Assembly: GCA_028286615.1 (NCBI GenBank)
Contig: JAQBRG010000003.1
Coordinates: forward strand, 83,330-147,329
Reading direction: 5' to 3'
DNA length: 64,000 nt
From: Parcubacteria group bacterium
Lineage (GTDB): Bacteria > Patescibacteriota > Minisyncoccia > Phycocordibacterales > Phycocordibacteraceae
The notes beneath the pieces were generated by a model. It was not told the DNA's origin, ran no database searches, and saw only the letters and a list, made by a program, of their open reading frames with translations. The position numbers were made by a program, and so were the translations under genes. Of the stretch, positions 3,612 through 46,496 are shown piece by piece (the stretch's first letter is position 1; each line of letters starts with the position of its first letter).

Positions 3612-3978
3612 TTGGTCCTGCATATGCAGGGATTGCCTTTGTGCGGGCAGGCTTGCCAGAGTTTGATCTGCGACTTCCCGTAATCAGTCGGTCTGGAGAT
3701 CTCTGTCAACTGAACTAGCGTGTTACCCAGTAGGCGTTTGCGAGCGGACATCCATCCGCTTGGGGCTGTGATGTAGAGTGTTGATTTTCGGCGCTTAGAG
3801 CGCGGGAATCATAACTTGAACTTGTACATGTGCGTTCCCTCTTTTGGCGAAGCGTGCGCTTTTTGTGAAGCCTGTCCCGTGAAAGCCGAATCCGTTAGAA
3901 ACGACTATGCCCATCTAAGTGAGCGCGACGGGCTGCAATGGCCATCACATCAATAGGATACATGTATATTTATATTTG

Positions 3979-6756: not shown

Positions 6757-7188
6757 ATGGGAATTTTCAATCTGAGTGGGTCTACAAAGACCCAGAAGAT
6801 CGTTAAGGCAATGGAGCCGCTCTTTGTCGAAAGGAATGGCAGAAGAGTGTTAGGAAAAATTCGCGTCGAGACTCTATTGAAAGGAAAGAACGTCCAGTTC
6901 TCGATAACAGCCAATATGGGCAGCCATGATGGACCTGTGTTGGATCTGAAGAAAGGTGTAGACTACCCTGACGACGATCGTGCTCGAGAAACCCTGCTCG
7001 TGCTCGCGCCTTTCAGTGACGGAGCAATTGCTGAGGCTATATTTAATGGCTTCGCGTGGAATTATCTGACTTCTATGGGTCGAGGCACGGGGCCTGAAGG
7101 TGACTACTGCGAACATTCCATTGGCAATGAGAACTTCGCGAGAGAGTCGGTAGCATCAATTGCCAAGTTAGCAGATAAAATACGCTAA
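6757..7188 (+). CDS. Hypothetical protein (143 aa)
   Basis: ORF preceded by TTGACT-N16/17-TATGGT and GGAGAG, followed by a bidirectional terminator. Confidence 0.45.
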   Translation: MGIFNLSGSTKTQKIVKAMEPLFVERNGRRVLGKIRVETLLKGKNVQFSITANMGSHDGPVLDLKKGVDYPDDDRARETLLVLAPFSDGAIAEAIFNGFAWNYLTSMGRGTGPEGDYCEHSIGNENFARESVASIAKLADKIR

Positions 7189-7194
7189 AGTGTT

Positions 7195-35209: not shown

Positions 35210-36703
35210 CTACTTTTCAAGGTCTAGTGTGTCGTCTATACGAATTTGTGCCACGAACTCAGGCACGTGACTAACGAGCACCATAGCGCCTTCGTACTGG
35301 TCTAGAGCCTTAGCAATAACAGGAAGATGGCGGAAGTTAATGTGGTTGGTTGGCTCGTCAAGAATAAGGAGTCCGGGGCGTTGAAGCACGAGACTTGCAA
35401 ATGCAACAAGTCCTTTCTGTCCTTCAGAAAGTACCCCGATTTTCTTTTGCATAACCTCGCCTGAAAGAATGAAGCCAGCTGCGGTTGCACGCATAACCTG
35501 CTCGTCCGGCTTATCCATAGAACGCATGAGAGCATCGTATACCGTGTGCTCAAAGTTAAGCGTTGAGAAGTCTTGTCGGTAGTAGCCGACACGTACTTCT
35601 TTTCCGATAGTTGCACCCTCTGCTTTTCCGCTTGCGAGCGCTTCAAGGAGTGTGGACTTTCCGATACCGTTTGGTCCCTTAAGGAGAAGATGGTTTGTTT
35701 TCTTAAGAGAAATGCTTGCCTTGTGTGCTTTGGGCTTATGCGTCTTAGGGTCCATCGTGCTGAACGAGGTTATAGAAAGGTATTCGCCGTTAAGGTCTGG
35801 CTGAGCTGGGATAGTGAAATTGCGGATGGTCTTATCTTCTTTACGCACATCAACCTTCTCTTCTTCCATTTCTTCAGCCTCTTCACGCATCTTTTTAGCA
35901 ACAAGACGCATCTTACCTCCCTTCTGTGCGAAGAAGTTGGCTTTATCCTTGTTGTCTTGAATCTTCTTGGCGAGCTGTGCGTTCTTTCGGTTCTCACGCT
36001 CAATACGAGCTGAGATCTCTTTGAGGAGATCGTAGTAGTTGCCGATGTACTGTTCAACCTTTCGGGTATGCACATCAAGATAGAGCACGCCGTCTGAGAA
36101 GGAGTTAAGGAATTCTGCATCATGGGAAATAACCATGCAGGTCTTTTCGTATTCTTGGAGGAACTTCGTGAGATGCTCGATGCCTGCGTGATCCAGGTTG
36201 TTTGTAGGCTCGTCCAGAAGAAGGAGGTCTGGGTCTTGGATAACCGCTGAAGCAAGAAGGAGACGTGCTTGCTGTCCTCCTGAGAAAGATTTAACAATGC
36301 GATCGTGGTCTGCGATATGCAGGTTAACAACTTCAAGTGCTGCATCAATCTTAGGATCGATGTCGTATACCTTCTGGTCGAAGCACTTCTCAAAGAATGC
36401 CCGGATGGTTAGCTCGCGTTCAGCGGGTGCTATAACCTGGCGCGCCATTGCAACCGTAAGTCCTGGAGCGCTCCAGATCTTTCCATCTTCAGGGTGCAGC
36501 TCCTCGGTTATGAGTTTGAAGATAGTACTTTTGCCAGCTCCGTTCTGTCCCATAACCGTAACCTTCATGCCACGACGCAGAGAAAAATCTACCGTATCGA
36601 GAATAGGGTAGTTATGCCCGTAGTTAAACGAGAGTTCTTCAAAACGAAGAACGGCTCCTTGTGAGCCGCCAGCGCCGCCTTCTTTAGTACCTTTTGCTAC
36701 CAT
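35210..36703 (-). CDS. ABC-F family ATPase (two tandem ABC domains, no TMD)
   Basis: Two Walker A sites (GQNGAGKST / GPNGIGKST), signature and Walker B in each half, charged inter-domain linker. Confidence 0.85.
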   Translation of the reverse strand: MVAKGTKEGGAGGSQGAVLRFEELSFNYGHNYPILDTVDFSLRRGMKVTVMGQNGAGKSTIFKLITEELHPEDGKIWSAPGLTVAMARQVIAPAERELTIRAFFEKCFDQKVYDIDPKIDAALEVVNLHIADHDRIVKSFSGGQQARLLLASAVIQDPDLLLLDEPTNNLDHAGIEHLTKFLQEYEKTCMVISHDAEFLNSFSDGVLYLDVHTRKVEQYIGNYYDLLKEISARIERENRKNAQLAKKIQDNKDKANFFAQKGGKMRLVAKKMREEAEEMEEEKVDVRKEDKTIRNFTIPAQPDLNGEYLSITSFSTMDPKTHKPKAHKASISLKKTNHLLLKGPNGIGKSTLLEALASGKAEGATIGKEVRVGYYRQDFSTLNFEHTVYDALMRSMDKPDEQVMRATAAGFILSGEVMQKKIGVLSEGQKGLVAFASLVLQRPGLLILDEPTNHINFRHLPVIAKALDQYEGAMVLVSHVPEFVAQIRIDDTLDLEK

Positions 36704-36747: not shown

Positions 36748-37992
36748 TTATGCATTCCCTCCGGCGACATAACCAGTAGTCCAGCAAAGTTGAAGCGAAT
36801 ACCCTCCTGAAGGACGCGTAATGTGAAGCAGGTCTCCTGTTATAAAAAGATTCTCAATCTTAAGAGAGCGCATGGTTTTGGTATCAATTTCTGAAAGCGG
36901 CACGCCTCCGTCTGCTACAACTGCTTTCTCAAAACCAAGAAGACCTGTAACAGTAATGGAGAGAGCTTTGAGAAGATCAATTAAGATTCTGCGTTCTTCT
37001 TTGGTTACGCTATGTACTTTCTTCTCTGGATCGATGGTTGAGAGAGCAAGCAAAAGGTCGTTCATGCCAGCAGGCGCAAAACCTTTAAATACATTCTTGA
37101 GGAGCTTGTTCTTATTCTCGTCTAAGAGTGCCATGAGCTGCTTATCGAGAATACCCAGGTCGATAGTTGGGAACATATCAATTGTGGCAGTAACGGCTCC
37201 TTCGTGTAGCAGGTCGTCCACCTTTCCAGCTGCGTTGAGAATAGTTGGTCCCGAGATACCAAAGTGTGTAAAGAGAAGCGGCCCTTTTGTAGAAAACTTT
37301 CGTACTCCTTCTACAAAGAAAGATATTTTCATCTCGGGAAGCGCTACGCCACTTACCTCTTTAACCCAGACCTCTTTAACTTTAAGAGGAACAATAGTTG
37401 GTGTTGGCTTGTGTACGGTATGTCCAAGTTTCGTTAACCACTCAAATCCATCTCCTGTTGAGCCGGTTTCTGGATGTGAGACACCCCCTGTTGCAAGAAT
37501 GTACGAGTTAGCTCGATACTCTTTCCCGTCTGCAACAATGAAATCTATCTGTCCCTTCTTCATAACCACGTTCTCAACCGCAGACCGAAGTTTGATATCA
37601 ACTTTTCCTTCTTTTAAATACTCAAGAAAGAACCGCACAACATCAACCGCTTTCTCGCTTTGAGGAAACGCCCGCTTGCGAGCCTCAACCTTTAAAGGGA
37701 GTCCTCGAGATTCAAAGAAGGCGTACGCTTCAGACATGCCGAATTCCGAGAAAGGAGAGAAAAGAAAATTCTTAGCGTCTCCGTATTGAGCCAGAAGTAC
37801 ATTCTCGTCCTCTTCTGCATTCAATATGTTGCAACGGCCTCCACCGGATATAGCCAGTTTCTCTCCGAGCTTTGCATTCTTCTCAAGCAAAAGTACCCGT
37901 TTGCCTTGTGCAGCGGCTACACCAGCAGCCATAAGGCCTGCAGCGCCACCTCCTATTACGAGCACGTCGTGAGACACCTCTCCTTTTCGCAT
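36748..37992 (-). CDS. FAD-dependent oxidoreductase, HI0933/YhiN (aminoacetone-oxidase-like) family
   Basis: DVLVIGGGAAGLMAA...GGGRCN. Confidence 0.75.
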   Translation of the reverse strand: MRKGEVSHDVLVIGGGAAGLMAAGVAAAQGKRVLLLEKNAKLGEKLAISGGGRCNILNAEEDENVLLAQYGDAKNFLFSPFSEFGMSEAYAFFESRGLPLKVEARKRAFPQSEKAVDVVRFFLEYLKEGKVDIKLRSAVENVVMKKGQIDFIVADGKEYRANSYILATGGVSHPETGSTGDGFEWLTKLGHTVHKPTPTIVPLKVKEVWVKEVSGVALPEMKISFFVEGVRKFSTKGPLLFTHFGISGPTILNAAGKVDDLLHEGAVTATIDMFPTIDLGILDKQLMALLDENKNKLLKNVFKGFAPAGMNDLLLALSTIDPEKKVHSVTKEERRILIDLLKALSITVTGLLGFEKAVVADGGVPLSEIDTKTMRSLKIENLFITGDLLHITRPSGGYSLQLCWTTGYVAGGNA

Positions 37993-38093: not shown

Positions 38094-38441
38094 ATGCCGA
38101 AGGACACGTCTCTACTAACTCGAGTAAGGCCGCAAACATACTATCAACGTAAAAGGGAGATCAGATGGGGCGCTGATATCGATGCAGAATTTCCTTCTCC
38201 ATCAGCTATTGCAAAGTTGCTGCCAAGTCTTTCTAAAGCGGAAAGGGATGTCGTTAAACTTATGGCGGAAGGCAAACCCTTCTTCAGGATTGGAGTTCTG
38301 CTTGATCGGGGAGAAGCTTACGTAGTGTCTGTTTCGAGTTCTGCACTCGAAAAACTTGGACTCCCCAGGACTTTCAACGAACTTAAGCGTGAAAGACGAG
38401 CTTGCCGTGCCTACATAATCGCTGAAGCACTGAAGATATAG
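38094..38441 (+). CDS. Hypothetical protein (115 aa)
   Basis: ORF with AGGAGG site (caaggaggcagttATG) and its own terminator. Confidence 0.45.
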   Translation: MPKDTSLLTRVRPQTYYQRKREIRWGADIDAEFPSPSAIAKLLPSLSKAERDVVKLMAEGKPFFRIGVLLDRGEAYVVSVSSSALEKLGLPRTFNELKRERRACRAYIIAEALKI

Positions 38442-38467
38442 AACATGTGCTCGTGCAAAACCTTAGA

Positions 38468-38545
38468 GGGGACGAATCTGAATACAGTTCGTCCTTTTCT
38501 CTTAAATAAAAAGGCCCCGCTCTATAGAGCGGGGCCTTTTTATAA
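38468..38545. terminator. Two adjacent terminators, one for the plus gene and one bidirectional for the minus gene
   Basis: GGACGAATCTGAATACAGTTCGTCCTTTTCT and AAAAAGGCCCCGCTCTATAGAGCGGGGCCTTTTTAT. Confidence 0.6.
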
Positions 38546-38550
38546 GAAAC

Positions 38551-38805
38551 TTATGCAGCGCGACGAACCATCTTTACGATTGCAATAAGTACAACCGCTC
38601 CGAGAAGTGCCACGAGGAAGCTGTAGAGATTGAAACCGCTTATGTCACCTTGACCAAGCATGCTCATAATCCAGCCTCCAAGCACCGCACCTACGATACC
38701 AACAATGATATCCATGAAGAGTCCCTGCTGGCCGTTTGTCTTCATAATAATAGAAGCGAGCCAACCTACGATTGCACCAAATACGATCCAAAGAAGAATA
38801 CCCAT
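38551..38805 (-). CDS. GlsB/YeaQ/YmgE-family (transglycosylase-associated) membrane protein
   Basis: MGILLWIVFGAIVGWLASIIM...; 84 aa; 3 TM. Confidence 0.75.
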   Translation of the reverse strand: MGILLWIVFGAIVGWLASIIMKTNGQQGLFMDIIVGIVGAVLGGWIMSMLGQGDISGFNLYSFLVALLGAVVLIAIVKMVRRAA

Positions 38806-38844
38806 AGTGAAGTAAATTAATTTTGTAAGCTATCCTCGATACAC

Positions 38845-39183
38845 TTATCGTGCTGTACCGGTTGCGGTGGTGGTTCCGCCATTCATAAGCACGGTGGTGG
38901 TGCTATTAACCGTAGTTGTTGTGAATGCGGGAGCCTGTCCAGATCCATTATTGTTAGTACTGCCAGTTTGCCCCTGCTGTGCACCCTCTAAGTTTGCGTT
39001 GGGGTTCATAAGCTTTGGCAGAAGGAACATTGCGAGCAGTACCAGTACTATGATCGCGATTAGGGCCACGATCCAGCCGCCGGCACCTGCACTTTCTGGA
39101 GTACCGTCCGGTCCTGGGTTATTAATTATTGTTGCCATATATTTGCGATATAACGTATCCGTTAGACTGGTACGCTGAAACAA
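38845..39183 (-). CDS. Small membrane protein with a Gly/Thr/Asn-rich tail
   Basis: One TM, low-complexity C-terminus. Confidence 0.4.
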   Translation of the reverse strand: MFQRTSLTDTLYRKYMATIINNPGPDGTPESAGAGGWIVALIAIIVLVLLAMFLLPKLMNPNANLEGAQQGQTGSTNNNGSGQAPAFTTTTVNSTTTVLMNGGTTTATGTAR

Positions 39184-39241
39184 TAAAATACTTATGATGA
39201 AGACCTCATTAAGCCACTGGTCTTCGTCTAACGACCTATTG

Positions 39242-40150
39242 TTATCCCTCGCTGGCTTCTTTTAGGGCAGCGATGTCAAACTTCTTCATCTTAAGAAATG
39301 CCTGTGTCATACGGGCAATCTTCTCCTTATCTCCGCTTTGCATAACTTCGTTCATTAGCGTAGGTACGATCTGCCAGGACACTCCGTACTTGTCCTTAAG
39401 CCATCCACATTGCTCTGATTCAGGAACTGCTGAGAGCTCTTTCCAGTAGTAATCAATTTCCTCTTGGGTCTCACAATTAACTATCAAGGAGACTGCTTCG
39501 TTAAAGGAGAAGTTGTGCGGACCTGCGCTGTCCATAGCGGTAAACCAGAGATCGGCAAGCTTGAAGTCGGTAAACATAATCGTGCCCTCTTTGCTTGGCT
39601 CCATGCCTGCGGGATACCTTGCAAGCGTACCGCGCTTTGCGTCCTTAAAAACAGAAAGATAGAAGTCAGAAGCTTCCTCGGCCTTCCCACACATCTCCTT
39701 TGTGAACATCAGGGAAGGAATGATGGGTGGTCGTTCCTCACCTTCAGGATTTGTGAAAATTAACTGCCAAGTAAGTCCATATTTATCCTCTACCCAACCG
39801 TATCGCTCGCTAAATGGGTACTTATCGAGAGGCATGAGTGCCTTCCCACCTTCTAAGAGTCTTTCCCATGTCTCGTCGATTCGTTTCCGTGCATCAGCAT
39901 CCTTCGAGGGGTCAAAGTTAACCATGAACGATATTGCGGGATTGAACTTGAAGAAAGGTCCCGCGCTTATAGCCTGGAACGAGGTTCCCATGATGTCGAA
40001 AGATACGATATCGCAATCTCCCGATGGAGTGTCCGTGATTACGGTAGTATTCGTTACTTTCGAGTTGGGAAAGATAGAAGTATAGAAACCGGCTGCTTCT
40101 ACGGCCTCCTTATCAAACCAGAGGTGTGGGACTATCTTTTGCATATACAA
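39242..40150 (-). CDS. VOC/glyoxalase-superfamily protein (tandem PhnB-like domains)
   Basis: [11 protein letters not shown]...AGFY and a repeated half; 302 aa. Confidence 0.6.
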
Positions 40151-40197
40151 ATTATATTAAATTAATTTGAAACAACAAACACTTCAATTCGGTTCTT

Positions 40198-40222
40198 ATG
40201 GGGCAATGCTGGAATTTTACCA
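40198..40222 (+). repeat. Degenerate copy of the cassette repeat (R1)
   Basis: GGCAATGCTGGAATTTT compared with GACGATGTTGGAACCTTT. Confidence 0.3.
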
Positions 40223-40435
40223 AGGCCACACAAGAGATATCTTTGGTTGCGGAAGCTTGAACAATATCGCCAAAACGACGTAGACAAGACTGACCACAAA
40301 GTACGTAATAATAAACGAGATTATAAGACCTCCGATACGCATATCCGGATACATGCCCTTAATTACCACTTGAGCGAGGAGCGAAAGAGTAATTAAGACA
40401 ACATCAAGAACGATATTTCCTTTCTTGTTTTTCAT
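40217..40435 (-). CDS. Small 2-TM membrane protein (72 aa); cassette gene
   Basis: ORF between repeats R1 and R2, with TATACT about 6 nt upstream of the ATG. Confidence 0.45.
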   Translation of the reverse strand: MKNKKGNIVLDVVLITLSLLAQVVIKGMYPDMRIGGLIISFIITYFVVSLVYVVLAILFKLPQPKISLVWPW

Positions 40436-40453
40436 AGCTTGAGTATAGCTCAG

Positions 40454-40483
40454 TTACTGGCTGCTTGGGACAATGCTGGAACC
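40454..40483 (+). repeat. Cassette repeat R2 (TTACTGGCTGCTTGGGACAATGCTGGAACC)
   Basis: 26/30 identity to the consensus. Confidence 0.7.
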
Positions 40484-40491
40484 TTGTTTGG

Positions 40492-40836
40492 CTAATTCCG
40501 CAGAATTACAAAGACAAGGCACACGAGACCGAATGTTGCTGCCCACACCACTGCCGCGGCTGCCAGATCCTTACTACGTCCAATTGCCTCGTCGTACTCA
40601 GGATGAATCTTGCTAAGTGCTATTTCAATAGATGAATTTTGAAGTTCGGTAACCATTACAAAAAACCAACAGAATACAAGTAACAACAACTCGTCCTTAG
40701 AAATATCGAACAGGAAATAAACAGTTGGCAGGCCGATCGCAGCAAGAAGTATTTCGATACGAACAGCGCTATCGTGATTAACCGCATAATGCAATCCACG
40801 AAACGGGTGCGACAATCGCTTAATCCAGTACTTCAT
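40492..40836 (-). CDS. Diacylglycerol / undecaprenol kinase (DgkA family); cassette gene
   Basis: ...ELQNSSIEIALSKI....DLAAAAVVWA...; 3-TM DAGK_prok pattern. Confidence 0.65.
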   Translation of the reverse strand: MKYWIKRLSHPFRGLHYAVNHDSAVRIEILLAAIGLPTVYFLFDISKDELLLLVFCWFFVMVTELQNSSIEIALSKIHPEYDEAIGRSKDLAAAAVVWAATFGLVCLVFVILRN

Positions 40837-40853
40837 ACTAATCAGTATATCCC

Positions 40854-40883
40854 TAGATGGGAGCCTGAAATGATCTTGGAACC
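40854..40883 (+). repeat. Cassette repeat R3 (diverged)
   Basis: TAGATGGGAGCCTGAAATGATCTTGGAACC. Confidence 0.5.
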
Positions 40884-40890
40884 GTTATAC

Positions 40891-40919
40891 TTGACACTAA
40901 GCTTTAATAGTGTTATCTT
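40891..40919 (+). promoter_or_regulatory. Sigma-70 promoter TTGACA-N17-TATCTT
   Basis: Directly after R3, about 28 nt before the 33-aa ORF's Shine-Dalgarno site. Confidence 0.5.
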
Positions 40920-40946
40920 TCTATTAGGAACAGAAGGGAGACCGGT

Positions 40947-41048
40947 ATGAAAACGCCAACCATCGTGCGCCATCGGAACAATGGTCGTGGCGGCTGGGAA
41001 ACCTGGCACAGCTACGACAACGGCAAGACCTGGACTATGGTGACCTGA
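40947..41048 (+). CDS. 33-aa Trp-rich micro-protein (MKTPTIVRHRNNGRGGWETWHSYDNGKTWTMVT)
   Basis: Own promoter, GAAGGGAG Shine-Dalgarno site, and a perfect 10-bp-stem terminator immediately downstream. Confidence 0.45.
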   Translation: MKTPTIVRHRNNGRGGWETWHSYDNGKTWTMVT

Positions 41049-41068
41049 TATCACCGCTCCAGCCCCCA

Positions 41069-41104
41069 CGCGACCCTCGAGAATTCGAGGGTCGCTTCTT
41101 TATT
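41069..41104 (+). terminator. Rho-independent terminator
   Basis: GCGACCCTCG-AGAATT-CGAGGGTCGC then TTCTTTATT. Confidence 0.65.
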
Positions 41105-41109
41105 ACTAA

Positions 41110-41139
41110 ATGCTGGCAGACAGGGGCAGTATCGGGACT
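41110..41139 (+). repeat. Cassette repeat R3b (partial: TGCTGGCAGACAGGGGCAGTATCGGGAC)
   Basis: 5' half matches the consensus TGCTGGCAGTCTGGG. Confidence 0.4.
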
Positions 41140-41143
41140 TTTA

Positions 41144-41635
41144 TTACCATGGGCACAGGGGTGTTTCAGTGCCCGGAATAACTTCCTGACTCCCCCATAC
41201 GAGAGCGTGGGTCGACCAGAACTCCTTGCTCTGCTCGGATAAGTGGTCCCCTCCTGGAAATGAAGGTGTGTCCCGTCCAACAAATGCCGTATATAAATCA
41301 TACCCGCCCTCAGACTTTCGGAGTGCGATGGTAATCCAGCTTGTGGGGGTTGATTCTTTGCCTTTTACAAAGCGTGAGTAGATGCTGCGACGAGGACGCA
41401 AGGCATAAACAATCTCATCTCCTTCTACGGTCTCCACCAAGTCTGTTGTACCAATTATCTCTCCCAGGTCCTTCTCCACACGTATCCACTCCCCACCACC
41501 CTCAAGTGTGGGAATAATGTGCTCAACAACATCCAGCAGCTTTGGATGGTGTTTAAAATGCGTCATTGAGTGGGAAGTGTCTGTATCCAAATATACGTCC
41601 TCGCCATTTTTTGTCTTACTAATTAGCTTCCTCAT
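41144..41635 (-). CDS. Hypothetical protein (163 aa); cassette gene
   Basis: ORF between R3b and R4. Confidence 0.5.
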   Translation of the reverse strand: MRKLISKTKNGEDVYLDTDTSHSMTHFKHHPKLLDVVEHIIPTLEGGGEWIRVEKDLGEIIGTTDLVETVEGDEIVYALRPRRSIYSRFVKGKESTPTSWITIALRKSEGGYDLYTAFVGRDTPSFPGGDHLSEQSKEFWSTHALVWGSQEVIPGTETPLCPW

Positions 41636-41655
41636 TGGGTGAAGTGTACCAAATA

Positions 41656-41685
41656 TTGCCGGATGGCTGGGACGGTGTTGGAACC
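41656..41685 (+). repeat. Cassette repeat R4
   Basis: TTGCCGGATGGCTGGGACGGTGTTGGAACC. Confidence 0.7.
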
Positions 41686-41688
41686 TTT

Positions 41689-42354
41689 CTACGTATTCTC
41701 CGAGTTTCCAGATAGCGAAGCAAGGAGCACTGGCAATTCGTTTAATGACTGAATGTGATACTCCGCCTTTGTTATGTCTAATGTATTGAAATCAGGATTC
41801 AGAATACTCACCACCCTGATGCCGGCTCTTTGCGCTGCTTCGATACCACGCGGAGCATCCTCGACGACAATAGCTTGACCTGCAGATGCATTCATTCTTT
41901 TGAGAGCCGTTATGTAGCTATCAGGAGATGGCTTCGGCTCTTTATAATCTTCGCGGAAAATAATTGTCTTGAGCAGGTCTCTAATAGGACTATCCTTGTA
42001 TGACAGCTCAAACATTTCCTTCCGTGTATTTGTAACTACACATAAGTCATAGGTCTTTGCGAGTTCTGAAAGAACCTTTGGAGCAGAAGGCTCTGTCATG
42101 TTGCCAAGCTCCGCCTGCTTCCATTTCCTGTCCCGTTCTGCAGTAAACTTTTCTGCAATATTGCTGTCATATCCCTTACTCTTAAGCCAGCCGGATGAAC
42201 CCAAGCCTGTTAGGAACGTATGCTGAATAAAATCCTCACGCGTATATGTAATTCCTAACGATTCGAATACCTCCTGGTTTAATTCAAAGATAAAGCGTTC
42301 GGTATGCACTAACACGCCATCATTATCAAAAAGAATTGTTGTTATCTTGGCCAT
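41689..42354 (-). CDS. HAD-superfamily hydrolase (cassette gene)
   Basis: N-terminal DxD motif ILFDNDGVL; HAD motifs II-IV. Confidence 0.7.
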   Translation of the reverse strand: MAKITTILFDNDGVLVHTERFIFELNQEVFESLGITYTREDFIQHTFLTGLGSSGWLKSKGYDSNIAEKFTAERDRKWKQAELGNMTEPSAPKVLSELAKTYDLCVVTNTRKEMFELSYKDSPIRDLLKTIIFREDYKEPKPSPDSYITALKRMNASAGQAIVVEDAPRGIEAAQRAGIRVVSILNPDFNTLDITKAEYHIQSLNELPVLLASLSGNSENT

Positions 42355-42377
42355 ATAAAAACTATAGCAGCTCTAAG

Positions 42378-42408
42378 TGTGGCTGGCAGTCTGGGACCAT
42401 GTTGGAAC
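42378..42408 (+). repeat. Cassette repeat R5
   Basis: GTGGCTGGCAGTCTGGGACCATGTTGGAACT. Confidence 0.7.
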
Positions 42409-42412
42409 TTAT

Positions 42413-43069
42413 TTAAATATCGAGATAGGTAATATCAGGAATAATCGTCTCAGCTCCTAAATCTTTCGCCTCCTCCTCTGTTAGCTGCCCCGTAAGGACA
42501 ACGATAGGCTGTACCTTTGCCGCTTGAGCCATGAGAACGTCGCCCTTGGCATCACCTACCATAACTGCCTCTTCAGGAAGGATAGTAAGTTCTTTCAGGA
42601 TTTTAAGAAGCAGGTCAGGATATGGCTTTCCACGTGAGGGATCAGGTAGCTCTGAACTTGAAGCTATAGTCGAAAAAATCCCCTCCATGTTAAAGCGCGG
42701 CAATATCTGTTCCCTAAGCAGCGTTCCGTTCATTCCCGTAGCGATGGCAAGTTGATACGTCTCTTTCAATTCTCTCAGCTTCTCGTCTGCGCCAGGGATG
42801 AGTTCTAATGCTGCAGAGAAGGTATTAGTGAAAATACATTGCTCATAGTATTCAGAGATACTATTTAGTAACGGATTCTTATCTCCTACAATGCTCGCGA
42901 TAACATCGCGGTGCGGCCTTCCCCAAAGTTCGCGCACCTTTGTGCGTATCTCATCAGGATCTTTCTCTACTCCCAAATGCTTTATGGCAGCGGTATAACA
43001 TGCGTAGTATCCCTCGGATGAGCCGCGCGTAATACAGTCGTCCCAATCGAGGACTACGAGTTTGATCAT
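42413..43069 (-). CDS. HAD-superfamily hydrolase (second, divergent paralogue; cassette gene)
   Basis: LVVLDWDDCI DxD motif; ...VGDAKGD... motif IV. Confidence 0.7.
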   Translation of the reverse strand: MIKLVVLDWDDCITRGSSEGYYACYTAAIKHLGVEKDPDEIRTKVRELWGRPHRDVIASIVGDKNPLLNSISEYYEQCIFTNTFSAALELIPGADEKLRELKETYQLAIATGMNGTLLREQILPRFNMEGIFSTIASSSELPDPSRGKPYPDLLLKILKELTILPEEAVMVGDAKGDVLMAQAAKVQPIVVLTGQLTEEEAKDLGAETIIPDITYLDI

Positions 43070-43093
43070 GTGCGAAGTATATCAGCCGGAATA

Positions 43094-43123
43094 TTGCTGG
43101 CAGTCTGGGACGATGTTGGAACC
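43094..43123 (+). repeat. Cassette repeat R6 (perfect consensus TTGCTGGCAGTCTGGGACGATGTTGGAACC)
   Basis: Identical to R7. The following roughly 30 nt (..TGCAAC..GGTTCTGTCTAG) are also shared with R7. Confidence 0.8.
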
Positions 43124-43171
43124 TTTCTGCAACGTATGGTAGGTTCTGTCTAGGATAGAAGGAACCTGAAC

Positions 43172-43375
43172 ATGTGCAATGAAGTTGACTGCGTCATCCT
43201 TTGGCACTATTACGACGCCAACCATCAGCTCGTAAACTCGTCCAGCACCCATTTGACGGGTTCGATGGAGAATCTCAACGAACGCATACGGGAGGCTCAT
43301 GGGGAGACTACGGCTAACCAGCTCGCGGGAAAACCGTATTCGGTAGTCGCGCAGATCATTCCAAGTAGAGTTTAA
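43172..43375 (+). CDS. Small hypothetical protein (67 aa); cassette gene
   Basis: Shine-Dalgarno site GAAGGA, followed by a hairpin terminator (GCACCCAGCGG...CCGTTGGGTGC, TTCTGTTTTT). Confidence 0.45.
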   Translation: MCNEVDCVILWHYYDANHQLVNSSSTHLTGSMENLNERIREAHGETTANQLAGKPYSVVAQIIPSRV

Positions 43376-43430
43376 ATTTGGGTATGCACCCAGCGGGAGT
43401 CATTCATCCGTTGGGTGCTTCTGTTTTTCG

Positions 43431-43460
43431 TTGCTGGCAGTCTGGGACGATGTTGGAACC
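43431..43460 (+). repeat. Cassette repeat R7 (perfect consensus)
   Basis: TTGCTGGCAGTCTGGGACGATGTTGGAACC. Confidence 0.8.
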
Positions 43461-43508
43461 TCCCTGCAATTTATGCTAGGTTCTGTCTAGACAACAAAGG
43501 AGGTCATC

Positions 43509-43718
43509 GTGTCCAAGACACCAGCTACCAAGCCCATCAATCCAGCTGAAGTGCGAGCTGCCATCAAGAAACTGGCTGCCCATGGATTTCATGAACGTAT
43601 GCGCCAAGTGACTGGCGATCAAGCACATCGCATCTTGCCGGAAATCTGGCCTGTCATCGAGGAGATCTGTCTCATAGCTGACGCGTGCGAGGCCGAAATC
43701 ATCGAGGTGCAGGGTTAA
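43509..43718 (+). CDS. Small hypothetical protein (69 aa, GTG start); cassette gene
   Basis: AAAGGAGG Shine-Dalgarno site 5 nt upstream of GTG; terminator downstream. Confidence 0.5.
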   Translation: MSKTPATKPINPAEVRAAIKKLAAHGFHERMRQVTGDQAHRILPEIWPVIEEICLIADACEAEIIEVQG

Positions 43719-43752
43719 GGTATCTGACACTCGCCCCAGTTTATAGATTCGC

Positions 43753-43797
43753 GACCGAACAAGGAAAGACCGTTCCTGTGTTCGGTCTTTTCTTTTG
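43753..43797 (+). terminator. Rho-independent terminator
   Basis: GACCGAACA...TGTTCGGTC then TTTTCTTTT. Confidence 0.6.
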
Positions 43798-43827
43798 TTG
43801 CTGGCTGTGTGGGACGATGTTGGAACT
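43798..43827 (+). repeat. Cassette repeat R8
   Basis: TTGCTGGCTGTGTGGGACGATGTTGGAACT. Confidence 0.75.
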
Positions 43828-43834
43828 TTTATAC

Positions 43835-43863
43835 TTGACAATTACTATCAATAGTAGTAAGAT
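43835..43863 (+). promoter_or_regulatory. Sigma-70 promoter TTGACA-N17-TAAGAT
   Basis: Immediately after R8. Confidence 0.5.
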
Positions 43864-43962
43864 GCAGTTAATTCTAGTTCGTATGAGCTAGTCGTTCCGT
43901 TCGCGGGATAAGGAGGTTCGGTTCCTGCCTCATTCAAGGAACCATGTACTTTGGAGGGTCGT

Positions 43963-44271
43963 ATGACCACCATTTCCGCAACTATAACTGGTGGGCCGTC
44001 GAAGTTCGATTTGATGCTCGCGCTGTTTGACCGCAAGTCAATCAACACGCGAGATGTCGAGTTCAAGCTTGGTGGCCCCGGCAAGATTTCGGCGCTCGTC
44101 GTCATTGATGCCGTCGAAGCCCAAAATGCCTCCGGCGACTACTGGAGCTACAAGGGCCATGTGCGGAGAATGCTTCCGCACCAGAAAGATGGTGTTCCTC
44201 CCCCACCTCTAAAGGTTGAGGGCTCGTATCACACCACCGACCGGCAAGGTTCGATGCGAACCGTCGACTGA
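43963..44271 (+). CDS. Hypothetical protein of about 102 aa, GC-rich (cassette gene). The track ORF starts at 43951.
   Basis: GGAGGG then ATG; about 57% GC. The antisense ORFs 43848..44105 and 44102..44347 are judged spurious. Confidence 0.45.
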   Translation: MTTISATITGGPSKFDLMLALFDRKSINTRDVEFKLGGPGKISALVVIDAVEAQNASGDYWSYKGHVRRMLPHQKDGVPPPPLKVEGSYHTTDRQGSMRTVD

Positions 44272-44347
44272 CGAACATGGGCCCGGACGAGATTAACTTC
44301 TCGCTCCGGGCTCTAACTATTTCCCGTTTGCACACTTTTGATAGCAC

Positions 44348-44377
44348 TTGCTGGCAGTCTGGGACGATATTGGAACC
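44348..44377 (+). repeat. Cassette repeat R9
   Basis: TTGCTGGCAGTCTGGGACGATATTGGAACC. Confidence 0.8.
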
Positions 44378-44387
44378 CTGTTTGCAT

Positions 44388-44825
44388 CTAATCTATAAGG
44401 TCTTTGGCCTTAAGGTCATCAAAAATGATTTGATCGACTGGAGAAGTAATATCTTTCTTTGAGTAATCAAACCAATCCATCAGCTCTACTTCGGCACTAG
44501 GTGTCAGATTGCCCGAATACTGTGCTTGATAACATGTCATGCGTACGACTGTTCCTTCAGGCTTTCCATGTGCCTGAGCCTCAAAAATGCCGTAGAGGAC
44601 AATAGTTGACGGGTCGATATCTACGTCCAGCTCCTCTTTCACTTCTCGAATTAGCGCTTGCTCATCAGTTTCTTGACCATCACGCTTTCCGCCTGGTATA
44701 TACCACGTATCTTTGCCCAGACTCTTAGTTTCAAGAACCTTTCTGTCTCGCAGCTCAATAAAGGCTAGCTTGTCGATGTATGTTTTCTCCATGTCTTTAG
44801 ATTCTAACTTAAGTGCTGCGGGCAT
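44388..44825 (-). CDS. NUDIX hydrolase (cassette gene)
   Basis: Nudix box GGKRDGQETDEQALIREVKEELDVD. Confidence 0.75.
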   Translation of the reverse strand: MPAALKLESKDMEKTYIDKLAFIELRDRKVLETKSLGKDTWYIPGGKRDGQETDEQALIREVKEELDVDIDPSTIVLYGIFEAQAHGKPEGTVVRMTCYQAQYSGNLTPSAEVELMDWFDYSKKDITSPVDQIIFDDLKAKDLID

Positions 44826-44842
44826 TGAGCGGGGTTAGAACT
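44802..44842 (+). repeat. Cassette repeat R10, second variant, with terminal inverted repeats TTCTAAC...GTTAGAA
   Basis: ATTCTAACTTAAGTGCTGCGGGCATTGAGCGGGGTTAGAAC. Confidence 0.65.
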
Positions 44843-44860
44843 AACTTACTCTCCGTACAT

Positions 44861-44889
44861 TGACATATTCACTAAAAGTAAGTATCATG
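44861..44889 (+). promoter_or_regulatory. Sigma-70 promoter TTGACA-N17-TATCAT
   Basis: Right after R10, upstream of the 45009 gene. Confidence 0.55.
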
Positions 44890-45008
44890 ATGTCGGCTGT
44901 ATATTGAAACGCTAGTTGCGTTCACCGCAGCAGAAAGGGGCTTATGGCCCTTCCCTGCTGTGGTGAACCCATACCGGGAAGACTGCGGTATATGAGAAGG
45001 AGATTGTC

Positions 45009-45638
45009 ATGGCGGGAACCCCTGTCGACGGCGATCTGTTCTATGCAATAGACGGCAAACTGCACGAGCTTAAGGGGCAGACACGCCTCAAGAGTGGCTA
45101 TCCGTTCAATCCACGTCGATTGAACTGGATGCTCCAGCAGCTCATTGAGGGCAACTTCTGCTCCGAGCTGCTCGACTTCAAAATGGATCTGCTGCTCAAG
45201 GGTGCAGAACGCTTCCACGTCGCTGAACACTTCAAGCAAGCTGCATCGAAGGATGCAGAAGTCCAAATGGAGCAGACGCACATCTGCGACATCGAGACCG
45301 GCATGAGTGTGGACCCTGAGTGGCTTAACTACTTCGAGGAACATGTCCCAGACGTGGCCGCGAAACTCTTCCGGATCAAATCCATGGGTGCTCAGGCCGC
45401 TGTCACGTGGCGGGAACTCGAGGAATGCTACGGCGCAAGGCCGGTCCGGTTCGTTCACATCTACGACTTCCTGAGGCAGAAGATTCCCCTTTCAGGAGGT
45501 TATCTCACCTTCTTCGCAGAGAAGGACGGCAAGATGTGCACGGTTGTCGCCCAAAAGCTTTCTCGGGGGTGGCACATAATGGTCTATCCGGTCTATCTGG
45601 AACTTCTGAGTGAAACGTACATCATCGTAGCCGTCTAG
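45009..45638 (+). CDS. Hypothetical protein (209 aa), GC-rich; cassette gene
   Basis: AAGGAG Shine-Dalgarno site; promoter upstream; structured leader. The antisense ORF 44922..45458 is judged spurious. Confidence 0.55.
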   Translation: MAGTPVDGDLFYAIDGKLHELKGQTRLKSGYPFNPRRLNWMLQQLIEGNFCSELLDFKMDLLLKGAERFHVAEHFKQAASKDAEVQMEQTHICDIETGMSVDPEWLNYFEEHVPDVAAKLFRIKSMGAQAAVTWRELEECYGARPVRFVHIYDFLRQKIPLSGGYLTFFAEKDGKMCTVVAQKLSRGWHIMVYPVYLELLSETYIIVAV

Positions 45639-45754
45639 ACCGCAACTAGCGATCGCCCGCCATGTCCTCGGACCTTTGGCGGGTTTTCGTTTATATAAAA
45701 GTTCTAACTTCAATAATCCTTCGTCACAGAACCTCTTACTTAAGACGTTATTTG

Positions 45755-45784
45755 AGTGCTGCGGGAACTGAACGAGGTTAGAAC
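45755..45784 (+). repeat. Cassette repeat R11 (second variant)
   Basis: AGTGCTGCGGGAACTGAACGAGGTTAGAAC; abuts the stop of the YbaK-like gene. Confidence 0.65.
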
Positions 45785-46341
45785 TATACTGCAGGGTTCG
45801 CCAGCCCTTCTACTACCTCGACATTCGACTGTGTCTTAAGAAAAGCAGTCGGGACAAGCAGTTTAGAAACTTGCTTCCCACCTCCGACAATAATCTTCTC
45901 TTTCTGCATTAACCGACTATCGATAAGCACTTTCCACGATTCTGGAAGGCCTACGGGGGTAATGCTTCCGTATTCCATGCCAGTTTCCTGTATGACCTCT
46001 TCCAAAGGGGCCATGGATACTTTCTTTGCGTTCAGTTTCTCGCAGACAAGACCGTTAAGGTCAGCGCGGTAGCCAACCGGAACAAGCACGGCAGCCATCA
46101 TTCTTTCTTCTCCCCTCTTTCCTTTCACAACTATGCAGTTTGCTCCGTCTTCAAGATTCACGTCATAGTGATCTGAAAGAGCACTTCCATTCATATACTG
46201 AGGGTCGATCTTCCCCACTAGCACCTCAGAATCCTTTACAACCGCATACACAGATTTGCTGACCAGTTCTGCGTGGTCTTTTACTGGCTGAAAATCGAGA
46301 TGTTCTTTCATATAGAAAGTGTACCAAGTTCTAATGTCCAA
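45784..46341 (-). CDS. YbaK/ProX/EbsC-family aminoacyl-tRNA deacylase-like protein
   Basis: 185 aa with a YbaK-like editing-domain pattern (..KGKRG....AAVL..). Confidence 0.55.
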   Translation of the reverse strand: MDIRTWYTFYMKEHLDFQPVKDHAELVSKSVYAVVKDSEVLVGKIDPQYMNGSALSDHYDVNLEDGANCIVVKGKRGEERMMAAVLVPVGYRADLNGLVCEKLNAKKVSMAPLEEVIQETGMEYGSITPVGLPESWKVLIDSRLMQKEKIIVGGGKQVSKLLVPTAFLKTQSNVEVVEGLANPAV

Positions 46342-46388
46342 AACACCTGCGTCAGAAAACCCAATATTTAATACCTTTCCAAGCGAGC

Positions 46389-46457
46389 TGGGAGACTAGG
46401 GATCGAACCTAGATTCACGGCTTCAAAGGCCGCTGTCCTACCATTAGACGATCTCCC
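46389..46457 (-). tRNA. tRNA-Gln (anticodon TTG), compact 69-nt form
   Basis: Reverse strand GGGAGAT...GCGGC-CTTTGAA-GCCGT...CTAGG-TTCGATC-CCTAG-TCTCCC-A. Clear T-arm and anticodon arm; short D-arm. Confidence 0.7.
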
Positions 46458-46496
46458 AATATCTGTATCCTGCCTGAGAATTAGGGCGCGAGCAAG

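Follow-up and report, generated by a model that had tools for sequence, protein, structure and literature searches.

Integrons, above all sedentary chromosomal ones, and the clusters of attC sites without an integrase that are known as CALINs, are the closest described systems to the one reported here. They are arrays of mostly single-gene cassettes of ~0.5 kb whose cargo is diverse and mostly unannotatable. One site lies right after the stop codon of each open reading frame (ORF), all sites are direct, the site at the head of the array (attI) is of a different type, and related genomes with conserved flanks contain wholly different arrays. The Patescibacteria, or candidate phyla radiation (CPR), have tiny genomes with few recognizable mobile elements, and we know of no integrons described in them. 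In a 64,000-nucleotide stretch of the genome of a Parcubacteria group bacterium (assembly GCA_028286615.1, contig JAQBRG010000003.1, positions 83,330 to 147,329), which in its full length we call the window, small genes of mixed orientation are separated by copies of a ~35-nt element, E, and the array that they form begins at a second site, P, located in the 3' end of a tRNA-Gln gene. The array has the layout described above, with P in the place of attI, and this match is a likeness of grammar only. We consider the array to be probably one case of an integron-like cassette-capture platform in the Patescibacteria, in which P acts like attI, E acts like attC and the recombinase acts in trans. 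We found no prior description of such arrays in CPR in the literature searched, literal sequence included, coverage of which was incomplete; the original prediction for this locus, made from the sequence alone, had likewise regarded them as undescribed there.

The differences from integrons are considerable. The attC site is a hairpin of 57-141 bp conserved in structure, whereas E is a linear double-strand motif of 30-35 bp conserved in sequence; intI lies beside the head of an integron, whereas no intI adjoins the E arrays; and integron cassettes are promoterless, co-oriented and expressed from the common promoter Pc, whereas E cassettes have promoters of their own (leaderless with a TG-extended -10, or full) and ~35% of them are inverted. 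The E arrays also differ in occurring several to a genome, in being headed by the tRNA-Gln 3' end or copies of it, and in their CPR hosts. Membership in the integron family was rejected because its three defining features (intI, the attC hairpin and promoterless cassettes) failed.

Islands and prophages targeted to tRNA genes, whose att core is the 3' part of the tRNA and which can accumulate in tandem at a single tRNA, resemble the array in other respects, since they lie directly 3' of a tRNA gene that remains intact, their direct repeats are related to the T-arm and acceptor 3' segment, and real partial duplications of tRNA-Gln are found at the same gene in some relatives. The units of the E arrays, in contrast, are single genes of 0.25-2.3 kb that lack an integrase, an excisionase and arm sites, their internal repeats follow a distinct derived consensus and do not copy the tRNA end, and the head sequence is also found detached from the tRNA, after housekeeping genes. 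An ordinary tRNA-targeted island requires an integrase encoded by the element; motif and Pfam searches revealed none here, and this candidate was rejected. Xer modules, such as the integrative mobile elements exploiting Xer (IMEX) at dif and the pdif modules of Acinetobacter, are likewise small, free of a recombinase and able to form tandem arrays, and their sites of ~28-35 bp are recognized in trans by the recombinase of the host, to which the E arrays can be likened; the only tyrosine recombinase seen in E-bearing genomes is a conserved XerD-like protein. E and P, however, lack the 11-6-11 inverted arms, pdif sites alternate in orientation, and a genome has one dif, at its replication terminus, but many heads of the E system. 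A dif/Xer-type site was rejected, as an 11-6-11 split of the E consensus gives ~3/11 arm matches and no palindrome.

Other repeat classes were rejected as well. A repetitive extragenic palindrome (REP), a bacterial interspersed mosaic element (BIME) or a miniature inverted-repeat transposable element (MITE) does not fit a repeat without palindrome or terminal inverted repeats that has one orientation and all 12 of its window copies within 5.6 kb. A CRISPR (clustered regularly interspaced short palindromic repeats) array has ~30-nt repeats with non-coding spacers of 26-72 nt, and the spacing here is 256-943 bp with an ORF and expression signals in each unit. The idea of a DNA uptake sequence was abandoned because the copies are clustered and in a single orientation, not dispersed. 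Possible resemblances to Tus/Ter-like and Tn7 TnsB sites (ATGTTGGAAC) were set aside; neither family would be expected in CPR.

The boundary element E and the head site P

E has the consensus TTGCTGGCAGTCTGGGACGATGTTGGAACCTTTnT (~35 nt), and alignment of copies from other genomes revealed no conservation beyond it; the original prediction had given the element a length of 30. The window contains nine clear and three degenerate copies between 40187 and 45790, all on the plus strand and one in each intergenic gap, and none was found elsewhere in the 64-kb window or on its minus strand. The 30-mer TTGCTGGCAGTCTGGGACGATGTTGGAACC matches five times with ≤3 mismatches, always on the plus strand (0 expected from 100 shuffles), and the 16-nt core TGGGACNRTRYTGGAA matches eight times, also always on the plus strand (0.6 expected); these pattern-search copies fall within 40.2-44.4 kb. 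A 35-nt weight matrix was built from 146 copies of E of other genomes. Its best score in 20 shuffled windows was 6, and it scored 13-61 bits at 40454, 40854, 41110, 41656, 42380, 43094, 43431, 43798 and 44348. The next three best positions in 37.9-46.5 kb, at 45756, 40187 and 44813, are in register and on the plus strand with scores of -3.5 to -11.5; they are plausibly decayed or variant relatives of E, each individually non-significant. The copies at 44813 and 45756 share 86% identity with each other (direct-repeat family D7) and match the main type at ~18/30 positions. These two variants (44813-44847 and 45756-45790), which flank a 209-aa ORF, have no counterpart in any of 116 other loci and may represent a lineage-specific site variant or an independent insertion flanked by direct repeats.

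The presence of a same-strand repeat in every gap of the array, as first described, was thus borne out by pattern searches and by the matrix against shuffles, while its likening to attC sites or Vibrio cholerae repeats (VCR) was not. A repeat search of the window detected no inverted repeats or dyad symmetry at the copies of E, and when eight window copies with 40-nt flanks were folded as single-stranded DNA on both strands, they behaved like shuffles (z of -1.9 to +1.5) with the element unpaired. The Rfam scan at gathering thresholds returned tRNAs only.

The original prediction missed the tRNA-Gln gene that heads the array and the origin of the element in its 3' end. In the window P occupies 46387-46409, inside a tRNA-Gln gene whose 3' end faces the array. 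The consensus of P is tAGGTTCGATCCCTAGTCTGCCAGCAAt, which can also be written GGTTCGATCCCTAGTCT[C/G]CCAGCAA and corresponds to the 3' end of tRNA-Gln. On the strand of the tRNA, E reads GGTTCCAACATCGTCCCAGACTGCCAGCAA. MAFFT aligned the two as follows, with a single 5-nt indel, four substitutions and 21/25 matching positions:

P = AGGTTCGATC-----CCTAGTCTGCCAGCAA
E = AGGTTCCAACATCGTCCCAGACTGCCAGCAA

Judging from this alignment, E descends from the terminal 23 nt of tRNA-Gln, with 5 nt inserted in the T-loop part. The kinship is visible on gapped alignment; ungapped, E matches the tRNA-Gln of the window at 9/30 positions, and the matrix finds nothing in tRNA 3' halves. The idea that E is the primer-binding site of a retroelement, complementary to a tRNA 3' end, was rejected because P copies the genomic flank AA and not CCA.

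The features of the array are listed below from the head to the distal end, a gene being called co-oriented when it reads in the direction of tRNA-Gln and anti-oriented when it reads in the opposite direction. "Score" is the matrix score, and elements with a score were located by pattern and matrix unless another source is given.

46387..46458, minus: tRNA-Gln(UUG), array head (ARAGORN, Rfam); its last 23 nt (46387-46409, GGTTCGATCCCTAGTCTCCCAGC) are the head site P.
45784..46341, minus: cassette 1 (head-proximal), YbaK/aminoacyl-tRNA-editing-domain protein, co-oriented (Pfam PF04073, E-value 1.5e-18); its stop adjoins the variant element at 45756 and its start codon is uncertain.
45756..45790, plus: variant boundary element GTGCTGCGGGAACTGAACGAGGTTAGAACTATACT, family D7, sub-threshold matrix score, aligning in register with E and P.
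45009..45638, plus: cassette 2, 209-aa ORF without Pfam match, anti-oriented (ORF, Pfam, promoter scan); TTGACA/TATCAT promoter at 44860-44888, Shine-Dalgarno sequence (SD), hairpin and T-run terminator at ~45655-45697.
44813..44847, plus: variant boundary element GTGCTGCGGGCATTGAGCGGGGTTAGAACTAACTT, family D7, sub-threshold matrix score, aligned with E and P.
44388..44825, minus: cassette 3, NUDIX hydrolase, co-oriented, likely ATG at 44792 (Pfam PF00293); its stop is 5 nt from the 35-nt element at 44348 and 10 nt from the 30-nt core of that element.
44348..44382, plus: E, score 52, between convergent 3' ends.
43951..44271, plus: cassette 4, 102/106-aa ORF, anti-oriented (ORF, promoter scan); TTGACA-17-TAAGAT promoter at 43835-43863, SD, terminator hairpin.
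43798..43832, plus: E, score 56.
43509..43718, plus: cassette 5, 69-aa ORF, anti-oriented (ORF); conserved promoter module at 43466-43492 with TTGGAA of E as -35, terminator hairpin at 43758-43799.
43431..43465, plus: E, perfect 30-mer, score 56.
43172..43375, plus: cassette 6, 67-aa ORF, anti-oriented (ORF); conserved promoter module at 43129-43155, terminator at ~43387-43430.
43094..43128, plus: E, perfect consensus, score 61.
42413..43069, minus: cassette 7, HAD hydrolase, co-oriented (Pfam); leaderless-type TG-extended -10 (TATACT) 6 nt before the ATG; its stop shares 2 nt with the end of the 35-nt element at 42380 and lies 3 nt after the 30-nt core.
42380..42414, plus: E, score 51.
41689..42354, minus: cassette 8, HAD hydrolase ("HAD1"), co-oriented (Pfam).
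41656..41690, plus: E, score 37 (core pattern and matrix).
41144..41635, minus: cassette 9, 163-aa ORF without Pfam match, co-oriented (ORF, Pfam).
41110..41144, plus: degenerate E, score 14 (repeat search and matrix).
40947..41048, plus: cassette 10, 33-aa ORF, anti-oriented (ORF, promoter scan); TTGACA promoter at 40891-40919, SD, strong terminator at 41070-41095.
40854..40888, plus: degenerate E, score 13 (matrix).
40492..40836, minus: cassette 11, DgkA-type diacylglycerol kinase, co-oriented (Pfam PF01219).
40454..40488, plus: E, score 38 (core pattern and matrix).
40217..40435, minus: cassette 12, 72-aa ORF without Pfam match, co-oriented (ORF, Pfam).
40187..40221, plus: most distal, strongly decayed element, score -5, whose core TGGGGCAATGCTGGAA equals 15/16 positions of TGGGACNRTRYTGGAA.
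39242..40150, minus: PhnB/3-dmu-9_3-mt-like protein, just past the last recognizable element (Pfam).
36748-37992: yhiN, and 35210-36703: ABC-F, the distal conserved flank.

The Pfam matches in the array region are DAGK_prokar, two HAD, NUDIX, tRNA_edit/YbaK and the distal 3-dmu-9_3-mt/PhnB-like domain. ORFs and Pfam confirmed the gene list given earlier and its mixed orientation (seven genes on the minus strand and five on the plus strand). The unit lengths, first put at 335-930 bp, are 256-943 bp, and the 33-aa and 163-aa ORFs, first placed in one unit, belong to different units, with the degenerate copy at 41110 between them. The array is bounded by dus-dnaX-M10 peptidase-tRNA-Gln on one side and by yhiN-ABC-F on the other. 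The PhnB-like gene may be an old cassette. Between the last element and the yhiN flank (38094-40150) there are three small or accessory-type genes (a 115-aa ORF, a 112-aa ORF and the PhnB-like gene), which may be old cassettes with boundary sites decayed past detection. The cumulative GC skew of the window has its maximum at ~16-17 kb and then falls steadily to the window end, which may mark a replication origin or terminus; the AT skew has a strong dip (-0.21) at 20-23 kb.

Distribution, expression signals and reassortment of cassettes

Genomes, one per species, were scanned for the exact pattern CTGGCNGNNTGGGACNRTRYTGGAAC in 8-kb blocks, and the counts given here are among the matches listed; labels such as L001 and L004 denote the other loci that were compared with the window. 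Further copies were found in at least 116 blocks from at least about 69 assemblies (counted by accession prefix), all of them Patescibacteria/CPR by record title: Parcubacteria/Paceibacteria, Saccharibacteria, Nomurabacteria, Kaiserbacteria, Berkelbacteria and one complete Woesebacteria genome. No E was found in IMG/VR viral contigs or in phage and plasmid collections. The matrix detected at least 347 copies in the listed loci, always on a single strand within an array; the only locus with E on both strands, L061, contains two arrays with separate heads. Several genomes have six or more separate arrays, and the size of an array varies between 1 and at least 14 elements; across L032 and L049, which are contiguous, 14 copies lie behind one tRNA-Gln. 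The sequence of E is constant across host loci of 32-60% GC, and in the 180 copies without a match to the search pattern the consensus base is present at positions 13-29 in 87-97% of cases (73% at position 21). The orientation of E agrees with the direction of flanking genes (282 vs 96), with GC skew (91/117 loci) and with tRNA direction (37 vs 9), so the arrays are polar relative to the likely direction of replication.

P at ≤4 mismatches heads 60/118 arrays, 19 times within a tRNA-Gln gene and 41 times as an isolated fragment of ~25 nt, and ~17 further heads have 5-8 mismatches. P-like matches number 64 in the orientation of the array and 3 in the opposite one, and the median distance from P to the first E is 484 nt. 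In ~30 listed loci the tRNA-Gln gene lies one cassette-length upstream of the first E and is always co-directional with the array. A stop triplet lies within 10 nt of the 5' end in 29/41 isolated fragments, as would be expected if P directly followed a flanking gene. At the head of the arrays L004 and L042, which are linked to tRNA-Pro, stands an isolated fragment that matches the last 23 nt of tRNA-Gln exactly. Next to the heads lie dnaX, tRNA-Gln and the genes of an M10-like and an M23 peptidase. In four loci (L002, 6285-6493; L026, ~7112-7194; L033, ~3816-3900; L118, 2995-3080) the full tRNA-Gln gene is directly followed by tandem partial copies of its 3' ~55 nt, joined by the conserved motif ACAGCACATTTCACTCnCTCnCTTG or a close variant. 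They look like an attachment-site duplication made by another integrative element, of the classical kind, with this tRNA as its target.

The 226 element-to-element units have a median length of 554 bp (interquartile range 417-733), and 160 of them contain exactly one ORF. The cargo consists of small accessory enzymes and is hyperdiverse: 236 cassette ORFs fell into 221 BLASTP clusters, 211 of them singletons, and most of the 150 cassette ORFs searched against Pfam had no match, those with matches including S51 peptidase, NUDIX, HAD, DUF218, AAA_33 kinases, methyltransferases, GNAT, zeta toxin and PIG-L. Functions linked to mobile elements or to defence also occur among the cassettes, namely zeta toxins and proteins that have a ParB_N domain, have a Hint domain or resemble a 5-hmdU DNA kinase (L018 258-1172, L041 6582-7499, L084 1316-2611 and several others).

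Cassette genes are co-oriented in 153 cases and anti-oriented in 83, and the two classes differ in their expression signals. A co-oriented gene has its stop codon within -7 to +7 nt of where E ends, and the next gene of that orientation starts 15-23 nt past E. In these genes 6-7 nt separate the ATG from a TGnTAnAnT box (-15 to -7) and there is no SD, which indicates leaderless genes with an extended -10 promoter. The anti-oriented third has its own full promoters, SD and hairpin terminators. A 27-nt module, GCAACATATGGTAGGTTCTGTCTAGA, follows 35/347 copies of E and uses TTGGAA of E as its -35; two copies are in the window (43129-43155 and 43466-43492) and 33 more elsewhere, before unrelated anti-oriented genes. 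The module reads as a promoter (TTGGAA-N18 with TGn-TAGGTT). Its conservation, including the transcribed CTGTCTAGA, exceeds what a promoter alone would require.

E itself is not tied to promoters, because its occurrence between convergent 3' ends is at chance level (55/224 observed, 59 expected, the orientations of left and right neighbours being independent), it is equally conserved there (median site score 47, against 45-49 in other contexts), and its strand never follows that of the gene. These observations speak against the shared operator offered as the alternative in the original prediction. A reading of CTGGCA/GGAAC as a sigma-54 or extracytoplasmic function (ECF) promoter was rejected because of unsuitable spacing and on the grounds of orientation just given.

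Genome comparisons demonstrate, at the level of sequence, that whole repeat-bounded units are replaced and reassorted between genomes, and the repeat-delimited cassette array first proposed is thereby supported. The flanks of the window array recur in many loci with arrays of differing size. The loci L004 and L042 are orthologous in two Parcubacteria, with flanks 74% and 80% identical; between the flanks L004 has 3.8 kb and 5 elements and L042 has 1.7 kb and 3 elements, with no similarity between the two, and one L004 cassette shares 88% identity with a cassette of L053, which is another locus of the genome that carries L042. The HAD1 cassette of the window is 79% identical to copies in L001, at rank 3 behind tRNA-Gln, and in L127, a metagenome contig of the Joint Genome Institute (JGI), at rank 5 of an array headed by an isolated P; its neighbours differ in all three. 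The housekeeping genes dnaX and dus are only 69% identical in nucleotide sequence between the window and L001. Nine alignments between genomes inside arrays end 0-4 nt from an element on both sides, and in shared cassettes homology starts right after the upstream E and spans the whole downstream E with its private variants.

Exact-protein look-ups yielded only one colinear 3.5-kb contig and no strain-level variant of the window array, and a metagenome scan with the M10 peptidase found relatives of ≤52% identity. Not every relative with the flank of the window carries an E array, because L118 (JACCDN010432299.1, 2995-6054) has the dus-dnaX-M10 peptidase-tRNA-Gln flank with no E within 3 kb downstream; a leaderless-type gene follows the partial tRNA duplicate in place of the array. 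As regards the findings that had been named as fatal to a cassette array, the copies lie in arrays and are not scattered beside operons, gene order is not a fixed block, and the element is not bound to promoters.

Proposed mechanism and rival explanations

We favour cassette capture because only integration of a circle through its own site into a resident one forces direct sites whatever the orientation of the cargo, and because of the head site, the single-ORF units, the hyperdiverse cargo and the mosaicism that is precise to the unit. A circular cassette with one E would recombine with P or with a resident E, conservative site-specific exchange would leave all sites as direct repeats with genes in any orientation, and excision between two copies of E would remove or reshuffle units. 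A typical cassette comprises a TG-extended -10 box, a leaderless ORF, its stop codon and, within a few nt, E. Because each ORF travels with its 3' E, we infer that the exchange point is at or near the ...CCAGCAA end, so that P would remain at the head, the tRNA would stay intact, and E would be kept with the ORF upstream of it. The enzyme would act in trans, and in view of the origin of the site in a tRNA 3' end our default guess is a tyrosine recombinase. In its fullest form the proposal is a "tRNA-mimic integron", in which a conserved trans-acting recombinase inserts and excises self-expressing single-gene cassettes at P and E in several arrays per genome; this we advance tentatively, with a confidence a little short of even.

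The recombinase search was largely negative. A motif search for boxes I and II found no tyrosine recombinase in the 64-kb window, as had been noted originally, and no integrase remnants were seen among the 236 cassette ORFs by motif search or by Pfam, which was run on 150 of them and on the 10 largest. Among the 116 listed loci the motif search found one tyrosine recombinase, of XerD type (L010, 4195-5142, minus strand; motif, Pfam), whose stop adjoins the last element of a two-cassette array. Orthologues 78-100% identical to it are present in many metagenome-assembled genomes of Patescibacteria, one orthologue being from the same sequencing run as a contig of the window's genome. Of the orthologous loci L131-L134, L133 and L134 have an insertion of two small genes (N_methyl, NUDIX) on the opposite strand immediately behind xer.

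Several observations weigh against cassette capture by a dedicated enzyme. No recombinase is linked to the arrays, and the XerD-like orthologues, in the three contexts compared, lie in a conserved housekeeping neighbourhood (rpsO-xer-xthA-cca) that has neither E nor P close by. E lacks the dyad symmetry of simple tyrosine or serine recombinase sites, and P and E differ in the T-loop segment; integrases that target the T-loop usually cross over in that segment. About 13 of the ~90 arrays with a visible upstream region have no recognizable head site. No circular cassette, strain-level empty-versus-filled site or recent transfer (>95% identity) was observed, the closest shared cassettes being 79-88% identical, and no clear trend of site decay with rank, counted from the head, was seen. 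The same mosaics could arise by RecA-dependent exchange between 35-bp repeats.

The last point belongs to the rival that survives best, though we think it unlikely. E would be a polar, protein-dependent terminator or insulator after leaderless genes, and the mosaicism would come from homologous recombination or gene conversion, perhaps after natural transformation. This would account for the co-oriented genes having E in place of a hairpin terminator while anti-oriented genes have hairpins of their own, for the orientation of E tracking local gene direction and GC skew in ~75-78% of loci, and for the failure to find a dedicated recombinase. Conservation of E is, however, just as high between two anti-oriented genes (28 cases) and E also lies upstream of anti-oriented genes, places where no co-oriented transcript could be terminated by it; a terminator leaves unexplained the tRNA-Gln-derived sequence, the distinct P and the lack of E in the other 58 kb of the window; and 35 bp is a poor substrate for RecA.

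We regard as improbable a second rival, in which the copies of E are scars of serial insertions by classical integrases at tRNA-Gln, the islands having later been deleted down to single genes with no cassette system involved. The array does adjoin tRNA-Gln, the repeats do derive from its 3' end, and the partial duplications in L002, L026, L033 and L118 are genuine. Yet E is not a decayed P but a distinct, sharply conserved consensus in at least about 69 assemblies, the units are uniformly small with one ORF each and no integrase remnant was seen in 236 cassette ORFs, and arrays also begin at isolated copies of P far from any tRNA.

A selfish repeat of the REP, MITE or Correia type, spreading into gaps of accessory regions without mobilizing genes, is very unlikely. 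E is indeed short, intergenic, multi-copy, highly conserved and often just past a stop codon, but it has no palindrome, terminal inverted repeats or hairpin, it keeps a strict single orientation per array with exactly one copy per gap, the homology between genomes comprises a gene and its E as a unit and breaks at elements, and the arrays have a distinct head site.

Finally, next to no weight can be given to E as an operator, UP element or promoter element that makes the whole cluster one regulon, in spite of its three phased YTGGNA hexamers, of TTGGAA serving as -35 for 35/347 downstream anti-oriented genes and of CTGCCA lying at -35 distance for two co-oriented genes in the window, since a quarter of the copies lie between convergent 3' ends with full conservation, the strand of E is indifferent to that of the genes, the TG-extended -10 promoters of co-oriented genes lie at variable distance from E and need no -35, and the cargo is functionally unrelated and different in every genome.

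Meaning for the biology of the Patescibacteria

E and P together provide a searchable two-site signature of hypervariable, cassette-structured regions in dozens of genomes, and the regions so marked contain small, unrelated genes in their hundreds, with a minimal expression signal for each. Even if exchange should be only homologous, the arrays are the main accessory-gene compartments of these genomes. If a site-specific enzyme acts at these sites, the recombinase and its 30-bp site would be a new pair and possibly a tool, and this recombinase-site pair would be an independent analogue of IntI and attC in a second, independently evolved integron-type system. The arrays would then offer a handle on gene flow among uncultivated episymbionts, and much of the acquisition and exchange of accessory genes by these ultra-small, host-dependent bacteria, also between deep lineages, would take this route.

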